Of a DNA stretch of 64,000 nt, positions 6,310 through 33,451 are shown piece after piece. Under the pieces are notes generated by a model, which saw only the letters and a program-made list of their open reading frames with translations, was not told the origin of the DNA and ran no database searches. How positions within the stretch are numbered: position 1 is the first letter of the stretch; each line of letters begins with the position of its first letter. The position numbers and the translations under genes were made by a program. Origin of the DNA: Escherichia coli (GTDB lineage: Bacteria > Pseudomonadota > Gammaproteobacteria > Enterobacterales > Enterobacteriaceae); NCBI RefSeq assembly GCF_013315695.1, contig NZ_CP054353.1; one strand, written 5' to 3'.

Positions 6310-7050
6310 ATGAATAACAACACCACGGCACCGACCTATACGCTGCGTGGCTTACAGTTGATTGGTTGGCGTGATATGCAGCACGCCCTCGATTATCTGT
6401 TTGCTGACGGGCAGCTTAAGCAGGGAACGCTGGTTGCCATTAATGCCGAAAAAATGCTGACCATTGAAGATAATGCTGAGGTCAGGGAGCTAATTAACGC
6501 TGCCGAATTTAAATATGCGGATGGCATCAGCGTTGTACGTTCAGTACGTAAAAAGTACCCGCAGGCGCAGGTTTCCCGCGTTGCCGGTGCCGATCTCTGG
6601 GAAGAGCTGATGGCGCGCGCAGGCAAAGAAGGGACGCCGGTATTTCTTGTGGGCGGTAAACCTGAAGTGCTGGCGCAAACTGAAGCTAAACTGCGCAACC
6701 AGTGGAATGTGAATATCGTTGGCAGTCAGGATGGTTATTTTAAACCCGAGCAGCGTCAGGCGCTGTTTGAACGCATTCATGCCAGCGGAGCGCAAATCGT
6801 CACCGTTGCGATGGGATCGCCAAAGCAGGAGATCTTCATGCGCGACTGCCGTCTGGTGCATCCGGATGCGCTGTATATGGGCGTTGGCGGGACTTACGAT
6901 GTTTTCACCGGTCACGTAAAACGTGCACCGAAAATCTGGCAAACGCTGGGACTGGAGTGGCTCTACCGCCTGCTTTCGCAGCCGAGCCGCATTAAGCGTC
7001 AGCTTCGTTTGCTGCGTTATTTACGCTGGCACTACACCGGCAACCTCTGA
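6310..7050 (+). CDS. wecG: UDP-ManNAcA:lipid I transferase (WecB/TagA/CpsF family)
   Basis: 246 aa; last gene of the ECA cluster. Confidence 0.9.
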
Positions 7051-7068
7051 TTTTCCTCTCTTTGTAAA

Positions 7069-7106
7069 GCGACGGAGTGGTCACTTCGTCGCCTTCCTGC
7101 TTTTTT
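7069..7106 (+). terminator. putative intrinsic terminator of the rff operon
   Basis: imperfect GC-rich inverted repeat GCGACGGAGTG/CACTTCGTCGC followed by a T-run TTTTTT ~20 nt after wecG stop. Confidence 0.5.
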
Positions 7107-7240
7107 ATTACACAAAGCATTCAAATTTTTAATGCTTTATTTGCCATTTCTCCTGAATTACGAAAACATTCGCAACACTCGATGTACCCATAACGATAAC
7201 CGGTAACACCGGAAAGCATGCAAACACAACACGAGGATTT

Positions 7241-8626
7241 ATGGCAGATAACAAACCAGAGCTACAGCGTGGGCTGGAAGCTCGACATATCGAACTCATC
7301 GCCCTGGGGGGCACCATTGGCGTCGGCCTGTTTATGGGGGCCGCCAGTACCCTGAAATGGGCCGGGCCATCTGTATTGTTGGCCTATATCATCGCCGGGC
7401 TGTTCGTCTTTTTCATCATGCGTTCAATGGGCGAAATGTTGTTCCTCGAACCGGTTACCGGTTCGTTCGCCGTTTACGCGCATCGTTATATGAGCCCGTT
7501 CTTTGGTTATCTCACCGCCTGGTCTTACTGGTTTATGTGGATGGCGGTGGGGATCTCAGAAATCACCGCCATTGGCGTTTATGTCCAGTTCTGGTTCCCG
7601 GAGATGGCGCAGTGGATACCCGCATTGATCGCAGTGGCGCTGGTGGCGTTGGCGAATCTGGCGGCGGTGAGATTGTACGGCGAAATCGAGTTCTGGTTCG
7701 CGATGATCAAAGTCACCACGATTATCGTGATGATTGTCATTGGCCTGGGCGTGATTTTCTTTGGCTTTGGCAATGGCGGGCAGTCGATTGGTTTTAGCAA
7801 TCTCACAGAGCATGGCGGTTTCTTTGCTGGTGGCTGGAAAGGGTTCCTGACCGCGCTGTGTATTGTGGTGGCGTCCTACCAGGGCGTGGAGCTGATTGGC
7901 ATTACTGCCGGTGAAGCGAAGAATCCGCAGGTGACGCTGCGCAGTGCCGTAGGCAAGGTGCTGTGGCGAATCCTGATTTTCTACGTAGGCGCGATTTTCG
8001 TTATCGTCACCATCTTCCCGTGGAATGAAATAGGCAGCAACGGCAGCCCGTTCGTACTGACTTTCGCCAAAATCGGCATTACCGCAGCGGCGGGTATTAT
8101 CAACTTTGTGGTGCTGACGGCTGCGCTCTCTGGCTGTAACAGCGGCATGTACAGTTGCGGACGTATGCTCTACGCACTGGCGAAAAACCGTCAGTTACCG
8201 GCGGCAATGGCGAAAGTTTCCCGTCACGGCGTACCGGTTGCGGGTGTGGCAGTATCTATTGCTATTCTGCTAATTGGCTCATGCCTGAACTACATCATTC
8301 CCAATCCGCAGCGTGTGTTTGTCTACGTCTACAGTGCCAGCGTGCTTCCGGGGATGGTGCCATGGTTTGTGATATTGATTAGCCAGTTGCGTTTTCGTCG
8401 TGCGCATAAAGCGGCAATTGCCAGCCATCCGTTCCGCTCAATCCTGTTCCCGTGGGCCAACTACGTAACAATGGCATTCCTGATTTGCGTTTTGATCGGC
8501 ATGTACTTTAATGAAGATACGCGTATGTCGCTGTTTGTCGGCATCATCTTTATGCTGACGGTGACGGCGATTTATAAAGTTTTTGGGCTTAATCGCCACG
8601 GTAAAGCGCATAAACTGGAGGAATAA
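7241..8626 (+). CDS. yifK: amino-acid permease (APC family)
   Basis: 461 aa polytopic ORF with APC permease signatures. Confidence 0.9.
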
Positions 8627-10648: not shown

Positions 10649-12304
10649 TTAATCAGATTTAATCTGCGCGCGCGGCGGATATTTTTTCAGGATCTCCATA
10701 TACGCGTGCATTTCGGTCTGTAGCGGTACACCCATTGGGATATGGCGCACGCCGATAGAGTCGCTTTCCTGCGGATCGGTGTACAGGTTAAACACCGACG
10801 ATCCCGCCGTTTGCATTACTGTGCCGGTGAATCCACCCTGATACCCGCTCTGGGTATACGCGTACGGTTGCTGGATCAGGACGTGATACTTGAACTCATC
10901 CATACGCACAGCAGAAAGTTTACCGTTGAGGAAGTAGTGCTCGGCCTTACGGTTAGACTGACCATTTGTTCCCAGGAAGAAAGATGTCTGGTCCACACCA
11001 TCGATAAAGGTGGTTTTCGGTACTAAATTCGCTACTTTCGCCCCAGGATGCCCCGCCAGATCCAGCGCCGTAGGGAAGAGATCCGCCAGATCGACAATGC
11101 CGTCAGATTTACGCGGTTGGATCATGCCTTTCCAGTAAACGAAGGTTGGCACACGAACGCCGCCTTCCCATGTAGAACCTTTCGCACCGCGGAACGGCGT
11201 GCGACCGTGCGGCGGTACTTCCGCTTCCGGTCCGTTATCGGAGGTAAAGACGATTAGCGTGTTATCCAACTGACCATTTTTCTCCAGTGCTTTATACAGA
11301 TTGGCGAAGATATCGTTCATCTCCACCATGCAGTCGCCGTAAGAGGTGCGCGCCGGAGAGCTACCCGCATATTTCGCATTTGGGTAGTTATCGAAGTGAC
11401 AGCCGCGAGTGCCGTAGTAGAGGAAGAAAGGCTTATCGCTCTTCGCCATCTTGTCGAGGAACTTAACGCCATATTCCATCCAGCGTTGATCCAGGTCTTC
11501 CATATATTTCGGCGTAATGTCGGCAATGGCTTCCTGTTCACCGCCGCGCACGGCATGAACGTCATCTTTGCTGAATGGCAGTTTTTGGATGTATTCAGAA
11601 CGATCCGGGCTCAGGGCGACTTCCGGGTTGACGTGAACATCACGCCATTCGGTATACATATCGGATACCGAGTTAAAGCCGCGGAAATCATCAAAGCCAA
11701 CGTTCTGCGGCTGCGACTCTTTGTTTTCCCCCATATGCCATTTCCCGATGGCCTGAGTGACGTAGCCCTGATCGTGCAGCAACTGCGGCAGAGTGGTTAA
11801 CCCTTGCAGACCGCCCGGTTGCCCGTACATTGGCGGCATCAGAATGCCGTGGTGGATGGAGTATTGTCCGGTAAGAATCGTGGCGCGGGTTGGGGAAGAA
11901 CTCGGTTGAGAATACGCCGAAGTTAAAATCAGCCCCTGGCTGGCAACGGCGTCGATATCTGGTGTAGGGTTACCCACCGCCACGCCGCCGCCGTTAAAGC
12001 CAACATCCATCCAGCCCACATCATCCAGCAAGAAAACAACCACGTTCGGTTTCTTACCGGTTTTTTTCTCAAGTTCTGCCAGCTTCTGCTGGGTTTCTTT
12101 GTCTTGTGCAGGATGCTGCATCACCGGCATCATGTTGTCGGCAATAGTGGTCGCCGGTTTAACCAGATACTGGTTTGGGTGATCGTATCCGGCAAAGCCT
12201 TTGCGTGCGGTGGCGGTTGACGGGGTATCTGCTGCGTTGGCCATGAGTGGAAGAGCGGCGGCGACAGCTACAACAAGAAGTTTGGGTGAAAACGAAAATT
12301 CCAT
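10649..12304 (-). CDS. aslA: arylsulfatase-like protein with signal peptide
   Basis: 551 aa; sulfatase family features, N-terminal signal sequence. Confidence 0.9.
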
Positions 12305-12728
12305 GCAAAATGCTCCGGTTTCATGTCGTCAAAATGTTGACGTAATTAAGCATTGATAATTGAGATCCCTCTCCCTGACAGGATGATTGCATAAATAATA
12401 GTGATGAAAATAAATTATTTATTTATCCAGAAAATGAATTGGAAAATCAGGAGAGCGTTTTCAATCCTACCTCTGGCGCAGGTGATATGTAAGGCGGTGA
12501 TGTTATATCGCGTTGATTATTGATGCTGTTTTTAGTTTTAACGGCAATTAATATATATGTTATTAATTGAATGAATTTTATTATTCATTATATATATGTG
12601 TAGAATCGTGCGCAGGAGAAATATTCACTCAGGAAGTTATTACTCAGGAAGCAAAGAGGATTACAGAATTATCTCATAACAAGTGTTAAGGGATGTTATT
12701 TCCCGGTTCTCTGTGGCATAATAAACGA

Positions 12729-12935
12729 GTAGATGCTCATTCCATCTCTTATGTTCGCCTTAGTGCCTCATAAACTCCGGAATGACGCAGAGCCGTTTAC
12801 GGTGCTTATCGTCCACTGACAGATGTCGCTTATGCCTCATCAGACACCATGGACACAACGTTGAGTGAAGCACCCACTTGTTGTCATACAGACCTGTTTT
12901 AACGCCTGCTCCGTAATAAGAGCAGGCGTTTTTTT
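12729..12935 (+). ncRNA. glmZ: GlmZ small RNA (activator of glmS translation)
   Basis: sequence GTAGATGCTCATTCCATCTCTTATGTTCGCC...AACGCCTGCTCCGTAATAAGAGCAGGCGTTTTTTT matches my recollection of GlmZ including terminator hairpin; CATAAT -10 element ~7 nt upstream. Confidence 0.85.
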
Positions 12936-13533
12936 ATGACCGGATAAAGAACTGGTTACGTCGCTCCTGGGTCATCGGTTGCGCGTTTAACACTCTTACA
13001 AGAGAGCCTACCGTGACGATGGGAAGAAACGGATTCTCTTCTATTCCGCATAGATCGCGCCCGCAACGAGCAGCGGTATCTTCAACCAGCTCTTCTAACT
13101 CGACTGCGTCGCTCACCAAATCCAGATCATCGTCCAGTATATCATCGGCTTTCAGTGGCAGTGGGTAATCGATATAGCCGTTTCCTTGCAAGGTATCCCA
13201 CACCGCACGAATCACCCATGTATCTACGGTGTAGGTGTCAAATTCGCGGGCGAACTGGCAAATGGAGCGTCCCCGACGTTTATCTGCCATGATTCGGTAC
13301 TTCTTGAGGATCTTGATTTTTTCCTGCTTCGCCGCAGCTATCAGATATCCAATAAAAAGTGTTAACCAGAAGATGAATGTATTGCCCGTACGTACAAAGG
13401 AAATAATCAACCAACTTACGCCAGCCAGAGCGGCACATATCAACAAGATTAAAAAGAGCGTTGCCCGAAAAGGAGTAATTTCATGCGATGGCAAGCGGAA
13501 AAGATAGCGGGACGGCGTGCGCAATTTTGACAT
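12934..13533 (-). CDS. hypothetical small membrane protein (two predicted N-terminal TM helices, acidic C-terminal domain)
   Basis: uninterrupted 199-codon ORF lying between the glmZ terminator and the hemY terminator; weak translation-initiation context; family not recognised. Confidence 0.45.
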   Translation of the reverse strand: MSKLRTPSRYLFRLPSHEITPFRATLFLILLICAALAGVSWLIISFVRTGNTFIFWLTLFIGYLIAAAKQEKIKILKKYRIMADKRRGRSICQFAREFDTYTVDTWVIRAVWDTLQGNGYIDYPLPLKADDILDDDLDLVSDAVELEELVEDTAARCGRDLCGIEENPFLPIVTVGSLVRVLNAQPMTQERRNQFFIRS

Positions 13534-28520: not shown

Positions 28521-29946
28521 TAATGCCAGTCAGTTAAGCAACTGACTGGCTCTTTTTCGGGGCTGTGGGGTATTTCCAGGGCCTCTCCTTTACCACTCTC
28601 GGGAAGGCCCTTTCCCTTCTTGTCGGTAATTTCACAAGTTGTCCCATACTTGCAAGATCGCGCATCAGCTCCGGTATACGTCCCGGTGAAGCGCCCTGCA
28701 ATGTCATCAGCATTCTCATCACCATTCCGCATGATTCTGAGAAACTCAGTTGATTCGGCCAGTAACCTTTCAGATGTTCCGCCATTTTAATCATCTGATA
28801 TCTCACCAGATTATAAGCCAGTAAGACACCCCACAGCTCTTGCTCCACAAGCTCCGGTTTTTTACTTCTCAGCGTCAGCCTGCTCAGTTGCATCGTCTGT
28901 TTTATCTCCCTGTATCCCAGTTCGATTTCCCAGCGATGACTGTACAGATCCGCCATTTCTCCTCCGGGGAAGCGCATGGCGTCCGTCATCGACGTCAGCA
29001 GATGGCAGACTTTTCCTTTGCGCGTCACGGTCAGCAGGCGGGCTGTCACTTCATTTCCCAGTCCCGGCCACTTTTTTCGTGCCTGCGGGCTGGTTTTCAG
29101 CTTCACCAGATGATCGCCTTTACCCAGTTTTCTGATCTCTTCATATTGCGCTCCCTTTCTGAGAGGTATCATCCAGTGGCGGTGTTCTCCCGCCAGGCTC
29201 CAGGCATTTAACAGTCCCAGTGAGTAATAACCTTTATCCATTAACGTCAGAGTGTTATCGCCGGTTTGTTCTATAAGTTGCTCAGCAAGCTCATTTTCGC
29301 TGTTCTTCATCGTGCCGAAGGCTGCAGCCGTCAGCAGATGGCTGGTCAGTTCCATCTGGCAGACCATTTTGACCTGCGGGTAGAGCGCCGGGTTCCCGGC
29401 ATGTGTCTGGCGGGGGAAGGCTGCATCGTTCTCTGGTGTATCCGGTGTGCGCCAGAACACACCATCGATGGCCAGCAGGGTCAGGCCGCACCAGTGCGGA
29501 TGCGGCGTGGCGTTATGCCAGAGCTGCGCTGTTTTCGTGAACACGCGGCGGACAGCCTCACTTCCCAGGCGCTGGCGGGCCTGAATAACGGCACTGGGGG
29601 CAACGAAGGGGCGATTGCCCGGCAGCATGATGTCCAGGCGATTCACAATCTGGTGAAGAGGTTCTTTACGCTCAAGCGCCATGCCAACAATACACCAGAC
29701 CATCATTTCGAGGGGAAGACGGCGCTTGCGTAGCGTTACAGTACCTGATTCGGCAAGGCAACGAGAGATGAGTTCGGGGTCGAGGTAATCCCCCAGAGAA
29801 GTCAGTGGGTTACGCAGAGAATCGTAACGGGATACCAGATCAAGAGCCTGTCCAATGTGCATAAAAAAATCCGGAAACAAGTGAGCGTTTCCGGATTCTT
29901 ACACAGCCACTGGATCGGTCAACTGATCCTTAACTGATCGGCATTA
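28521..29946 (-). mobile_element. IS4 insertion sequence (complete, 1426 bp)
   Basis: 18-bp terminal inverted repeats TAATGCCAGTCAGTTAAG / TAATGCCGATCAGTTAAG (16/18), single transposase ORF, flanked by 12-bp direct repeat. Confidence 0.9.
28534..29862 (-). CDS. insG: IS4 transposase (DDE)
   Basis: 442 aa from [20 protein letters not shown]...; matches my recollection of IS4 transposase. Confidence 0.9.
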
Positions 29947-29958
29947 CACCTTCTGCTG
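29947..29958. repeat. 12-bp target-site duplication (right copy) of IS4
   Basis: CACCTTCTGCTG immediately outside IS4 right IR. Confidence 0.85.
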
Positions 29959-30282
29959 ACCGTTTTCGATGTACAAACCGAGCGGCGCATAGCTTTCATC
30001 ATAGATGCCGCCGTTCATCGCCATCTGCACCTGACCCTGACTATTCATATCCGCCAGCAGAGCATGTAACGTTCCCCACGCTTCGCCATTGGCTTTTTGC
30101 CAGTACATTTTCACCCGCTCTGTTTGAGGATTAACGGTATACGCCTGTACGGTCAGCGTCGGATCTGAGAGTGCGCAATCTTCAGCGGCAACAGCAAACA
30201 AGGGAAGTAAGGTGAGGGTGAGAAAAATCCGTTTGAGATTCAAGGTGATCATTCCTTTACCAATGAGTAGCCGATGCGCCAT
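29947..30282 (-). pseudogene. yigE: yigE (DUF2233) N-terminal fragment, truncated by IS4 (stop codon supplied by IS end)
   Basis: 112-codon ORF MAHRLLIGKGMITLNLKRIFLTLTLLPLFAVA... ends at TAA formed by the terminal TTA of IS4. Confidence 0.8.
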
Positions 30283-30651
30283 TATAGGTCCTGGATGTGG
30301 GATTTTTTTATCCTGTTAGCGACCTTGACGAGTACCAAAAAGCGCGAAGTTCAACTATTGTTCTGTGGTGTTCTGTTGCGTGTTGACGGCAAAATTTTGC
30401 TGGCGTAACATGCGCGCACGATCACTCTAAGAGGACATTCGCCTTGGACACACCCAGTAGATACTGGCTCACTATCCTGTCATCCAGGATCAACTCCTAA
30501 GGCTATCCCTTTTTGCTGATAGCCTTAGCGGTTGTCAGCGACCTCAATTTTTCCCGTCGCGCTGAGTCAGGCTGTTTAATGGTCTGAAACCCAATTTGTT
30601 TCTGTGTGCCCACCGAACTGTCCGATATTTTAAGCATTGGGAGTCCCGGTC

Positions 30652-31602
30652 ATGCTGAGCGCATTTCAACTGGAAAATAACCGACTGACCCGGCTGGAAG
30701 TCGAAGAGTCACAACCCCTTGTAAATGCAGTATGGATTGATCTTGTCGAACCGGACGACGACGAGCGACTGCGCGTACAATCTGAACTTGGTCAGAGCCT
30801 GGCAACCCGCCCGGAACTGGAAGACATCGAAGCATCGGCACGTTTCTTTGAAGACGATGACGGCCTGCATATTCACTCCTTCTTCTTCTTTGAAGATGCG
30901 GAAGATCACGCCGGTAACTCCACTGTGGCATTTACCATCCGTGATGGTCGTCTGTTTACTTTGCGTGAGCGTGAACTGCCCGCTTTTCGTCTGTATCGTA
31001 TGCGTGCCCGTAGCCAGTCGATGGTAGACGGTAACGCCTACGAGCTGCTGTTGGATCTGTTCGAAACCAAAATCGAACAGCTGGCAGATGAAATTGAAAA
31101 TATCTATAGCGACTTGGAGCAGTTGAGCCGGGTGATTATGGAAGGGCATCAGGGCGATGAGTATGACGAAGCGCTCTCTACGCTGGCGGAACTGGAAGAT
31201 ATCGGCTGGAAAGTTCGCCTGTGTCTGATGGATACCCAGCGTGCGCTCAACTTCCTGGTACGCAAGGCGCGTTTACCGGGTGGGCAACTGGAGCAGGCGC
31301 GTGAAATCCTGCGAGATATCGAATCCCTGCTGCCGCATAACGAATCCCTGTTCCAGAAGGTGAACTTCCTGATGCAGGCGGCGATGGGCTTTATCAATAT
31401 CGAGCAGAACCGCATCATCAAAATCTTCTCGGTGGTATCCGTGGTGTTCCTGCCGCCAACGCTGGTTGCTTCCAGCTACGGGATGAACTTTGAGTTTATG
31501 CCAGAACTGAAGTGGAGTTTCGGCTACCCAGGCGCGATTATCTTTATGATCCTCGCGGGCCTGGCACCGTATCTGTACTTTAAGCGGAAGAACTGGTTGT
31601 AA
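30652..31602 (+). CDS. corA: magnesium/cobalt transporter CorA
   Basis: 316 aa from [15 protein letters not shown]...; GMN motif (YGMNF) before C-terminal TM helices. Confidence 0.95.
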
Positions 31603-31626
31603 CTTTACGATGTCGCTGTGAGTAAG

Positions 31627-32013
31627 TTAGTGTGCTGACAGCGACATTTTAGCCGAGGGAATCGCAGATAACATAATTGTTGTGAATAATATCCATGCTA
31701 CGTTGAGTTGGACGCTTAATGAATCACATCTCACCCCTTCAATTACTGCCGAGATAATAGAAAAAAGTGTCAAACCCAATGAAATCAATACAAAATAGAT
31801 TGCCTTACATCCAGTATCTCTTATTCTTTTAGCTCCGATATTGATATTCGCATACGTATTAGTGATGACCAGAATGAAACTCAAAGCCAGGTTGATATCA
31901 TTCAAAGTTATTAATATTGTCCATGATGTTAATGTGTAGATTATAAACTGCAAACGTGATAAATGCTCAAGCCTGGATGGGTATAATATATTTCTAATAG
32001 ATGATTTAAACAT
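31627..32013 (-). CDS. yigF: small inner membrane protein
   Basis: 128 aa hydrophobic ORF in AT-rich segment downstream of corA. Confidence 0.7.
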   Translation of the reverse strand: MFKSSIRNILYPSRLEHLSRLQFIIYTLTSWTILITLNDINLALSFILVITNTYANINIGAKRIRDTGCKAIYFVLISLGLTLFSIISAVIEGVRCDSLSVQLNVAWILFTTIMLSAIPSAKMSLSAH

Positions 32014-32200
32014 TTTTATATTGTTTTGTATATGATTGGTTTAAGTGTATATACATTATTTAGAACATATAGCTTGTTATATCCATGCAATATGACAGCC
32101 TTTGTATTGATAACTATACAGTAGTAATTTAGAGTGTGTAAGTTTTTATTGAGGGGAACTATATTTAATTAAATAATATTTGTTTCTATGAATAATATTT

Positions 32201-32518
32201 TTGGTGAATGTATTCTATATGGAAAATAGTAACTTTTGGCAGTTGTTCTTGGGTAAAGAACCTTACAGCAAAAAATCTGATTTTGTTAAGGCGTGGTTAT
32301 TGTGGTGGGCTATTACCATCCTTGTTCTATTTATTTTAAGCCTGACTACGACATTAAATTTAAGAAGTATAGGTATAGGGTTAAGTTTTGGGTTTTGTCA
32401 AATCCTTGGTAGATATACGATGTCTCTAGGATGGAGTAAGTACTGGGGAGTTTTGGGGGTATTTCCTGTAACAAATATTGTTCTTTTTCTTATCTTAATT
32501 TTTTTCAAAAAAAGATAA
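32201..32518 (+). CDS. yigG: small inner membrane protein
   Basis: 105-codon hydrophobic ORF in AT-rich segment; start uncertain. Confidence 0.6.
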   Translation: MVNVFYMENSNFWQLFLGKEPYSKKSDFVKAWLLWWAITILVLFILSLTTTLNLRSIGIGLSFGFCQILGRYTMSLGWSKYWGVLGVFPVTNIVLFLILIFFKKR

Positions 32519-32563
32519 ATAAGTCAGTGGGTAGGCTTTTAAACGGCCTACCCATGTTAATGC

Positions 32564-33451
32564 CTAACTTTTTCTACGCTGCGTATAAATCGCATCCATC
32601 ACAAAAATTGCCAGCGCCACCCAAATAAAGGCGAAGGTCACCATCTTATCGGCACCCGGTTTTTCACCATAAAACGTCACAGCCAGCAGGAACATCAGCG
32701 TCGGGCCAATGTACTGAAAAAAGCCTAACGTTGAGAGACGCAGGCGTGTCGCAGCCGCAGTAAAACACAACAGCGGTACTGTAGTGACAATCCCGGCGGC
32801 GATCAGCAGTAAATTCAGTGACATCGGGTTTTGCCCCATATGGCTGGTTGAGCTGTCGGCAATAGCAAACAGGTAAATCGCCGCCACGGGCAGCAACCAC
32901 ATAGTTTCGATTAACATGCCGGTTTGCGCTTCAACAGCAATCTTCTTGCGTACCAGGCCGTAGAAGGCAAAACTAAACGCCAGCCCCAGCGCGATAATCG
33001 GCAGTGAACCAAAAGTCCACAACTGAACCAACACGCCACATATCGCCAGAATCACCGCCAGCCATTGCATCCGGCGGAATCGCTCGCCGAGGAAAATCAT
33101 CCCCAGCACAATGTTCACCAGTGGGTTAATAAAGTAACCAAGGCTCGCTTCCAGCATATGGTGATTGTTCACCGCCCAGATAAACAGTAGCCAGTTGCCA
33201 CCAATCAGCACGGCAGAGACTGCCAGCATAAAAATTTTCTGTGGCGTCTGAATCAGCGTTTTTAAATAGGACCACTGGCGGCAAATGCTCATCAGCACCA
33301 CCATAAAGAAAAACGACCAGATCACGCGATGCGTCAGGATCTCATCGGCGGGCACGTAGTAAATCAGCTTGAAGTACGCTGGCGCAATACCCCAAATAAA
33401 ATAAGCGGCAAGAGCGAGTAATACGCCCTGCCGCGTTTGTTTTGCATCCAT
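32564..33451 (-). CDS. rarD: DMT-superfamily transporter RarD
   Basis: 295 aa, 10-TM EamA-type. Confidence 0.9.
   Translation of the reverse strand: MDAKQTRQGVLLALAAYFIWGIAPAYFKLIYYVPADEILTHRVIWSFFFMVVLMSICRQWSYLKTLIQTPQKIFMLAVSAVLIGGNWLLFIWAVNNHHMLEASLGYFINPLVNIVLGMIFLGERFRRMQWLAVILAICGVLVQLWTFGSLPIIALGLAFSFAFYGLVRKKIAVEAQTGMLIETMWLLPVAAIYLFAIADSSTSHMGQNPMSLNLLLIAAGIVTTVPLLCFTAAATRLRLSTLGFFQYIGPTLMFLLAVTFYGEKPGADKMVTFAFIWVALAIFVMDAIYTQRRKS

Follow-up and report, generated by a model that had tools for sequence, protein, structure and literature searches.

What occupies the interval that separates two convergent core genes, corA and rarD, in the 64-kb stretch of Escherichia coli DNA studied here (64,000 nucleotides; hereafter the window), and by what route did it come to lie there? 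An earlier reading made from the letters of this stretch alone (the sequence-only reading) had described positions 31603-32560 as an AT-rich segment containing yigF and yigG, and as an old, horizontally acquired patch that is likely bound by H-NS. The analysis reported here finds two other genes at this position, the open reading frames (ORFs) ORF128 and ORF99. The segment is probably the stand-alone version of what we term the W-type cassette, an accessory AT-rich unit at a recombination hotspot between corA and rarD that is swapped by recombination in the flanks and silenced. Small AT-rich islets between core genes that are probably bound by H-NS are already known, the K-12 allele of this site is in the literature, and current ideas stand. 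What is new is that the window holds a different allele, that a conserved gene within it is unannotated, and that the site is a three-way hotspot at which cassettes can stack, one of them being a validated toxin-immunity pair.

Composition and gene content of the segment

The segment at 31603-32560 has a GC content of 32.15%, compared with 52.1% for the window (standard deviation 0.033 over all 958-bp windows, z of about -6). It is the minimum among the 958-bp windows of the 64 kb, and the 0.16% of these that are equally low all overlap it. A 300-bp GC profile dips to 0.243 at 31900-32199 and returns above 0.5 within corA and rarD; by part, the values are 0.525 for corA, 0.344 for ORF128, 0.225 for the spacer at 32014-32200, 0.327 for ORF99, and 0.506 for rarD. 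Codon usage departs from that of the window in the same manner. The GC content at third codon positions (GC3) is 0.36 for ORF128 and 0.33 for ORF99, against 0.577 +/- 0.052 for 47 long reference ORFs of the window (minimum 0.459), and an index resembling the codon adaptation index, built on 47 window ORFs, is 0.45 and 0.47, respectively, against 0.692 +/- 0.045, placing both genes 4-5 standard deviations under the window's genes. The sequence-only reading had proposed GC and codon-usage calculations as a check on its description, and both leave the AT-rich segment standing, as does the hydropathy of its products, which that reading had characterized as only two small hydrophobic proteins (grand average of hydropathy of 0.8 for the 128-residue and 0.7 for the 99-residue product). 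Its coordinates were nearly exact: the start, the first base past the corA stop codon, is as given, and the variable segment extends on the right to 32572 instead of 32560, taking in the rarD stop codon and the final two codons of that gene.

The identity assigned to the two genes did not survive comparison with K-12. A megablast search with positions 31400-32800 against 5426 complete E. coli genomes returned at least 80% query coverage in only 1430, and K-12 derivatives aligned to the corA and rarD flanks only (31% of the query), with no DNA of the K-12 islet alignable to the segment. At the K-12 site, yigF, which encodes a DUF2628 protein, adjoins corA and is followed by yigG, both on the minus strand, whereas in the window the YigG-like gene is the one next to corA and its unrelated partner lies on the plus strand, the two diverging from a central spacer. 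Neither ORF is a homologue of YigF/DUF2628 (PF10947): there was no match to the Pfam model, which K-12 YigF itself matches at E 3.7e-10, BLASTP found nothing, and hhalign against YigF gave probabilities of 0.2% for ORF99 and 1.6% for ORF128. The C-terminal codons of rarD also differ between the two arrangements. In other respects the islets are alike, as they share the insertion site and a left breakpoint at the corA stop codon, are similar in size (915 bp in K-12, 970 bp here) and GC content (0.347 in K-12, 0.32 here), and each encode two small membrane proteins (~126 residues in K-12) of which one belongs to the YigG family. The common position, the similar length, and the YigG-family product could be taken to mean that the segment is a diverged orthologue of yigF-yigG with the same two genes, but alignment confined to the flanks, the altered gene order and strands, the lack of any DUF2628 resemblance, and a score for ORF128 of 27 bits against an NCBIfam YigG equivalog cut-off of 217 bits make this highly improbable. 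Orthology is refuted for yigF, and for yigG there is homology at the family level only.

The relation of ORF128 to YigG is distant and extends over the full length of the protein. BLASTP detects 30% identity to K-12 YigG (E 3e-5), and hhalign of the ORF128 family against the YigG family from several genera yields a probability of 99.4% (E 1.6e-21) over 117 columns. In an alignment of 14 YigG-family sequences, five positions are invariant (R20, R63, R65, D66, and G68), and conservation is at least 90% at P12, N58, and P119; ORF128 carries the loop motif N-x-N...R-x-R-D-(S/T)-G together with the N-terminal P...R. Against the NCBIfam equivalog model NF008474/PRK11371 it attains 27.4 bits (E 2.9e-6), short of the cut-off. 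Judged by its sequence, ORF128 belongs to the YigG family as a divergent member and is not a YigG equivalog. It lies between corA and rarD but without the co-directional DUF2628 neighbour present in K-12, Salmonella, and Buttiauxella, and BLASTP finds no similarity between ORF128 and YigF.

The partner gene has fewer relatives. An exhaustive profile search with ORF99 recovered homologues in Escherichia and Pseudocitrobacter corydidari only, besides a few distant metagenomic proteins (P0047, P0049, and P0050) that are encoded on short contigs with uninformative neighbours. BLASTP and hhalign show no similarity of ORF99 to YigF or YigG, hhalign against ORF128 is likewise non-significant, and the extended ORF99 family reaches a non-significant probability of 3-5% against the YigG family. 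P0050 aligns with DUF805 at E 1.3e-4 (22.8 bits), under the Pfam cut-off of 25.7 bits, and ORF99 itself has no Pfam match to DUF805. These profile comparisons suggest that ORF99 represents an orphan family whose connection to DUF805 is weak and indirect at best.

By way of comparison, DUF805 (PF05656), the family of YhaH/YhaI-type inner-membrane proteins, appears to share with the YigG family a small multi-helix membrane architecture and an R-x-R-D-x-G loop motif. K-12 YigG (17.3 bits, E 0.007) and ORF128 (14.2 bits, E 0.062) give full-length alignments with it, and some databases label YigG members as DUF805; however, neither of these proteins nor P0050 reaches the gathering cut-off. The literature found mentions DUF805 only in passing, with no function known. 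AlphaFold models of ORF128 (predicted local distance difference test score, pLDDT, of 76) and ORF99 (pLDDT 71) contain four and three long helices, respectively, and Foldseek searches of both models against the PDB gave no match below E = 1. PADLOC and PHROGs returned nothing significant for ORF128, ORF99, YigF, YigG, DUF943, or DUF3289 (the last two are encoded by an alternative occupant of the site; see below).

Could such a segment be decaying non-coding AT-rich DNA, such as the remnant of an old insertion, in which the ORFs occur by chance? The atypical codon usage, the lack of an above-threshold Pfam match for either product, and the missing annotation of ORF128 would fit that possibility. 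RefSeq lists no coding sequence (CDS) for ORF128 in any of the 11 E. coli loci inspected, an omission that looks like a systematic gene-calling miss affecting about a quarter of E. coli genomes. Both ORFs, however, are intact in all 11 of these loci (85-100% DNA identity; 93-100% for ORF128 alone) and also in P. corydidari, another genus, where the proteins are 46% (ORF128) and 61% (ORF99) identical. The ratio of non-synonymous to synonymous substitution rates (dN/dS) ranges from 0.12 to 0.24 for the two genes, with a significant excess of synonymous changes (p 2e-6 to 1e-3): ORF128 of the window differs from that of the common E. coli sub-type by 17 synonymous and 8 non-synonymous changes (dN/dS 0.12, p 2e-6), and ORF99 differs from its counterpart in a non-coli Escherichia lineage by 21.5 of each kind (dN/dS 0.21, p 1e-5). 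Together with the profile homology of ORF128 to a conserved family with invariant residues, this leaves very little room for chance ORFs. Both, on the evidence of these substitution patterns, are selectively maintained genes under purifying selection.

Alternative occupants of the corA-rarD site

Alignment of the window with K-12, Nissle 1917, and 7_56_38A reveals sequences that are identical to the last base of the corA stop codon (31602), diverge immediately thereafter, and become identical again at 32573. The tail of RarD varies with the occupant of the site and reads ...QRRKS* next to the window cassette, ...QRRTSK* next to yigF-yigG, and ...QRRTRxGx* at empty sites. At least three kinds of cassette occur in E. 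coli, as established by separate counts for each type over the 5426 complete genomes: yigF-yigG in 2408, a DUF943 gene with a DUF3289/YPO3983 gene in 2624, and the W-type in 1429, with some genomes carrying two. All are AT-rich (GC 0.347, 0.329, and 0.32, respectively). The second kind has been studied experimentally (PMC11148199): DUF3289 was shown to be a putative type VI effector that resembles colicin M and acts in the periplasm, and DUF943 its immunity protein. This pair is absent from the window by tblastn and has no sequence or family relation to ORF128 or ORF99, although it shares their insertion site and low GC content. In the Nissle-type cassette, the yigG 5' end and the region upstream of it survive as a remnant, which indicates that the toxin pair took the place there of yigF and the greater part of yigG.

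The stand-alone form of the W-type cassette found in the window is rare. Full-length matches of at least 96% identity were recovered from 11 genomes, and in the four of these that were inspected (AF14, MSB1_4I, AR_0077, and GF4-3) the cassette directly follows an intact corA. Approximately 1420 further E. coli genomes carry a version that is ~92% identical (90-95%), and in all seven sampled, including O157:H7 EDL933, this version is stacked directly downstream of the DUF943/DUF3289 pair in the order corA - DUF943 - DUF3289 - 147-bp corA 3' fragment (corA') - ORF128 - ORF99 - rarD, so that the duplicated corA fragment parts the pair from the W-type cassette. Comparison of the two W sub-types yields markedly uneven divergence, with identities of 92-95% over the corA' fragment, 93.5% for ORF128 (synonymous divergence, dS, of 0.22), 99% for ORF99 (dS 0.016), and 96.7% for rarD; the spacer between the two genes varies more than any other part of the cassette, at 79% identity with indels relative to the EDL933-type. 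The 14-fold difference in dS between ORF128 and ORF99 points to recombination within as well as around the cassette. One locus first considered as a distant relative (L006, GCA_002230675.1) was dropped, as it proved to be an error-rich or degenerate copy of the stacked E. coli locus with frameshifted genes.

Two further observations concern the variability of this neighbourhood. In various strains, the AT-rich cassette is interrupted by a copy of the insertion sequence IS1, and each of the three types is affected, the copy in AF14 (L004 2263-2960) lying in the spacer of 22% GC, which fits the preference of IS1 for AT-rich DNA. In GF4-3, a WapI-family immunity gene is inserted between pldA and recQ (L089 6444-6902), ~2 kb from the cassette, and the neighbourhood thus has a second variable spot with conflict-type genes. 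Literature searches for a corA-rarD hotspot retrieved nothing relevant, though catalogues of pan-genome hotspots may list it.

The distribution beyond E. coli was surveyed in 80 Enterobacterales species loci, fetched with CorA as the query, throughout which corA and rarD are convergent neighbours. In most genera the site is empty, with only a GC-rich hairpin of 50-136 bp between the two genes. This is the case in Citrobacter, Enterobacter, Klebsiella, Kluyvera, Cedecea, Trabulsiella, Pseudocitrobacter faecalis, and Atlantibacter hermannii, as well as in Yersinia, Hafnia, Erwinia, and some Pectobacterium. The ancestral state in Enterobacterales is an empty site with a terminator hairpin. AT-rich pairs resembling yigF and yigG occur in Escherichia, E. 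albertii, Phytobacter, Superficieibacter, Pseudescherichia, Kosakonia, Mangrovibacter, Salmonella, and Buttiauxella, and without exception the filled sites of Enterobacteriaceae hold cassettes of 32-45% GC. Outside E. coli, the W-type was encountered only in P. corydidari, at the same site and with the same two-gene arrangement (35% GC in a background of 54% GC), and in one non-coli Escherichia lineage whose rarD is 94.5% identical to that of E. coli. A stacked locus is present in Atlantibacter subterranea, with the order corA - DUF943 - DUF3289 - rarD' (62 bp) - corA' (264 bp) - yigF - yigG - rarD. The junction scars of the stacked cassettes can be inspected at L024 8627-9083 (A. subterranea) and L090 2847-2993 (the 147-bp corA' of EDL933).

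Two loci of the survey stand apart. A genome labelled E. coli SCPM-O-B-8794 (L008 6900-7040) has an empty site with a 59-bp hairpin and a corA 3' end that is 87% identical at the DNA level; this genome probably falls outside E. coli sensu stricto. Outside Enterobacteriaceae, in Serratia, Pectobacterium, Pantoea, Dickeya, Brenneria, and others, a gene of normal GC content lies between corA and rarD (Table 1).

Origin, probable exchange, and proposed silencing

These distributions agree with the claim that the segment was acquired horizontally, since the site is empty in most genera of the 80 species and, in E. coli, is occupied by three cassettes that are unrelated or barely related and have sharp breakpoints. 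The comparison across Enterobacteriaceae that the sequence-only reading had suggested shows a patchy pattern, with the cassette absent or replaced in close relatives. The designation "old" is likewise upheld, both by the shared arrangement in P. corydidari and the non-coli Escherichia lineage and by the synonymous divergence of ORF128 between the E. coli sub-types.

The junctions suggest how the cassettes might move. Lineages would pass them to one another by homologous recombination in the flanking corA and rarD sequences, and stacking would result from single-crossover (Campbell-type) insertion of circularised donor fragments. Such insertion accounts for the leftover corA' and rarD' fragments, and the layout in A. 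subterranea is as expected from a single crossover of a circularised donor fragment reaching from the 3' end of corA to the 3' end of rarD. Because the corA' fragments differ in length between E. coli and Atlantibacter, we infer independent recombination events and not a fixed attachment (att) site.

Once acquired, the cassette would be subject to silencing. The AT content is 67.8% in the segment and 77.5% in the spacer, against 47.9% in the window, and 200-bp windows of at least 68% AT extend over 31751-32530. TpA steps number 117 per kb in the segment compared with 43 in the window, and A/T tracts 102 per kb compared with 17. Papers on the K-12 yigF-yigG cassette, which differs in sequence, describe it as an extended protein-occupancy domain, as a "promoter island" for which H-NS data exist, and as part of the gene set silenced by H-NS; K-12 yigG is cited there as a horizontally acquired gene that H-NS represses and that contains intragenic promoters. 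By composition and by analogy with K-12, binding of H-NS to the W-type cassette, as the sequence-only reading had proposed, is plausible: H-NS/StpA would bind and largely silence it owing to its composition, as measured for the different K-12 cassette, and both proteins would be made under de-silencing conditions only. The cassette resembles H-NS-silenced xenogeneic islets in lying between conserved core genes at ~20 points under host GC, in its patchy distribution, in its richness in TpA steps and A/T tracts, and as a target of IS1 insertion. It differs from them in that it is locked to one locus and exchanged like an allele, and in that no recognisable mobile element serves as its carrier.

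Several results weigh against a silenced cassette of foreign origin. The H-NS high-affinity motif TCGATAAATT, by which the W-type cassette also departs from such islets, has no match in the segment when up to 2 mismatches are allowed, against 0.92 per kb elsewhere in the window. A consensus scan counted 8 promoter-like hexamers against 5.3 +/- 2.8 in shuffled sequences, no enrichment. ORF128 has no obvious Shine-Dalgarno sequence and was not called by the annotation pipeline PGAP, and Pfam and NCBIfam gave sub-threshold matches only. In every genus examined, including Salmonella and Buttiauxella, the YigG family was never met away from the corA-rarD locus. Finally, AT-richness is retained among family members that are only 25-30% identical (33-45% GC), and its persistence over such deep divergence is not expected from a simple amelioration of foreign DNA, so that some maintained bias is needed.

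The last two of these points, together with the absence of mobility genes and terminal repeats, speak for a different history, with the cassette as an ancestral native locus that is vertically inherited and evolves fast, with empty sites produced by repeated deletion, and with an AT-richness that is maintained and not foreign. The segment indeed has no transposase or integrase ORF, PHROGs gave no significant match to a phage family, and a search for repeats found only 10-13-nt repeats at chance level, with no terminal repeats or att-like sites. This history has to contend, however, with the short GC-rich empty site in the outgroups (Yersinia, Hafnia, Erwinia, Pectobacterium, and Lonsdalea) and in most Enterobacteriaceae genera, and with presence and absence within a single genus, as in P. 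corydidari versus P. faecalis and A. subterranea versus A. hermannii. Nor does it sit well with unrelated cassettes that replace one another in E. coli, with a flanking rarD that is 3.3% divergent between cassette types, an unusually high value, or with the contrast in dS between genes of one cassette. We therefore consider vertical inheritance unlikely and retain the reading of an accessory cassette that is exchanged through its flanks.

Features of the locus and possible roles of its products

The features of the cassette and its flanks are collected in Table 1.

Table 1. Coordinates of the corA-rarD locus in the window and of one feature in other loci.
Feature	Position	Strand	Remarks
corA (Mg/Co transporter), conserved left flank	30652..31602	+	ORF and RefSeq annotation of identical loci
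Left breakpoint, corA stop codon	31600-31602		Cassette types identical up to TAA, then wholly different
Hairpin over the ORF128 stop codon	31609..31648		13-nt arms 31610-31622 and 31635-31647
ORF128 ("W128"), 128-aa four-helix membrane protein, YigG family	31627..32013	minus	No RefSeq CDS
Divergent intergenic spacer, 205 bp	32014..32218		GC of the part 32014-32200 given in the text
ORF99 ("W99"), 99-aa three-helix membrane protein	32219..32518	+	RefSeq "hypothetical protein" WP_001330510.1, identical loci
GC-rich hairpin between ORF99 and rarD	32527..32555		11 bp; RNA fold
Cassette-specific rarD 3' end, codons K-S-stop	32564..32572	minus	Right breakpoint 32572/32573
rarD (EamA-family transporter), conserved right flank	32573..33451	minus	Conserved from 32573 on in all cassette types
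~350-aa gene between corA and rarD outside Enterobacteriaceae	about 7050-8200 in fetched loci L056-L086	+	

A hairpin lies near either end of the cassette. On the plus strand, the left one has a folding energy of -23.6 kcal/mol with a z of -3.95 and is followed by UUUU, and on the minus strand its z is -2.55; it was missed by a simple terminator scan and is probably a bidirectional terminator for the convergent corA and ORF128. For the right one, the folding energies are -19.0 kcal/mol for the plus strand (z -3.5) and -20.7 kcal/mol for the minus strand (z -4.45); it too probably terminates transcription in both directions. The two hairpins probably insulate the cassette from its convergent neighbours corA and rarD. 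The spacer is presumed to be the promoter region of both ORF128 and ORF99. An Rfam search at a permissive threshold had as its sole match a chance Norovirus CRE inside corA.

Elsewhere in the window, the second most AT-rich spot is 12305-13533, where the 200-bp windows at 12381-12730 have an AT content of 68% or more, between a sulfatase gene (10649..12304) and a 199-aa ORF (12934..13533) that adjoins a hemY-like gene; it may be a further small accessory islet. An IS4-family transposase gene (28534..29880, minus strand) interrupts yigE and leaves a 112-aa remnant ORF at 29944..30282. E. coli MSB1_4I shares the junction of IS4 with yigE at 100% identity, and only 19 of the 5426 genomes contain it, which assigns the window to the MSB1_4I lineage. 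From the K-12 and MSB1_4I annotation, an 18-aa leader ORF, ysgD (YsgD/CorL family), should be present at ~30444-30500, ~150 bp upstream of corA.

With regard to function, ORF128 and ORF99 would act in the inner membrane or envelope, and the most likely reading is that they are conditionally expressed inner-membrane or envelope proteins carried as silent cargo. The only phenotype for the YigG family comes from Salmonella yigG mutants, which attach less to surfaces and, in some backgrounds, tolerate chlorine less well.

The company kept by the W-type cassette invites another interpretation, namely that it is a module for interbacterial competition in which ORF128 and ORF99, and YigF and YigG as well, are orphan immunity or protective proteins against envelope toxins, with a polymorphism driven by an arms race. 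The alternative occupant of the site is a demonstrated periplasm-acting toxin with its immunity protein, the 90-95% identical W-type cassettes follow this pair directly wherever sampled, several deeply diverged alleles exist at the site, and the products are small polytopic membrane proteins, presumably akin in size and topology to the immunity proteins of pore-forming colicins. On the other hand, the corA' junction (rarD'-corA' in Atlantibacter) that separates the modules points to independent arrivals and not to one operon, and the form in the window has no toxin gene. Neither ORF matches an immunity or defence family, and the dN/dS values signify purifying, not diversifying, selection. A competition module is accordingly doubtful. 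More speculative still, and to our minds improbable, is the wider proposition that corA-rarD is a dedicated cassette-exchange locus for envelope-conflict genes, with YigF, YigG, ORF128, and ORF99 protecting against toxins of the periplasm or membrane or against phage. A long-lived multi-allelic polymorphism across Escherichia, swapped and stacked with DUF3289/DUF943 by recombination in homologous flanks, would be part of that proposition. If true, it would supply the first function for the YigG/DUF805-like and DUF2628 families.

The preferred reading, an exchangeable and silenced accessory cassette, has wider consequences. It corrects an error of annotation by position: in about one in four complete E. 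coli genomes, O157:H7 EDL933 among them, the site lacks yigF-yigG and holds a different cassette, which includes the YigG-family gene that RefSeq omits. The corA-rarD interval emerges as a compact multi-allelic hotspot with borders sharp to the base pair, at which three AT-rich cassettes replace one another or stack and whose junction scars, corA' and rarD', point to a mechanism of recombination. It thus offers a natural system in which to ask how presumably H-NS-silenced xenogeneic genes move without the machinery of mobile elements, and why the AT-richness of such genes outlasts long divergence.

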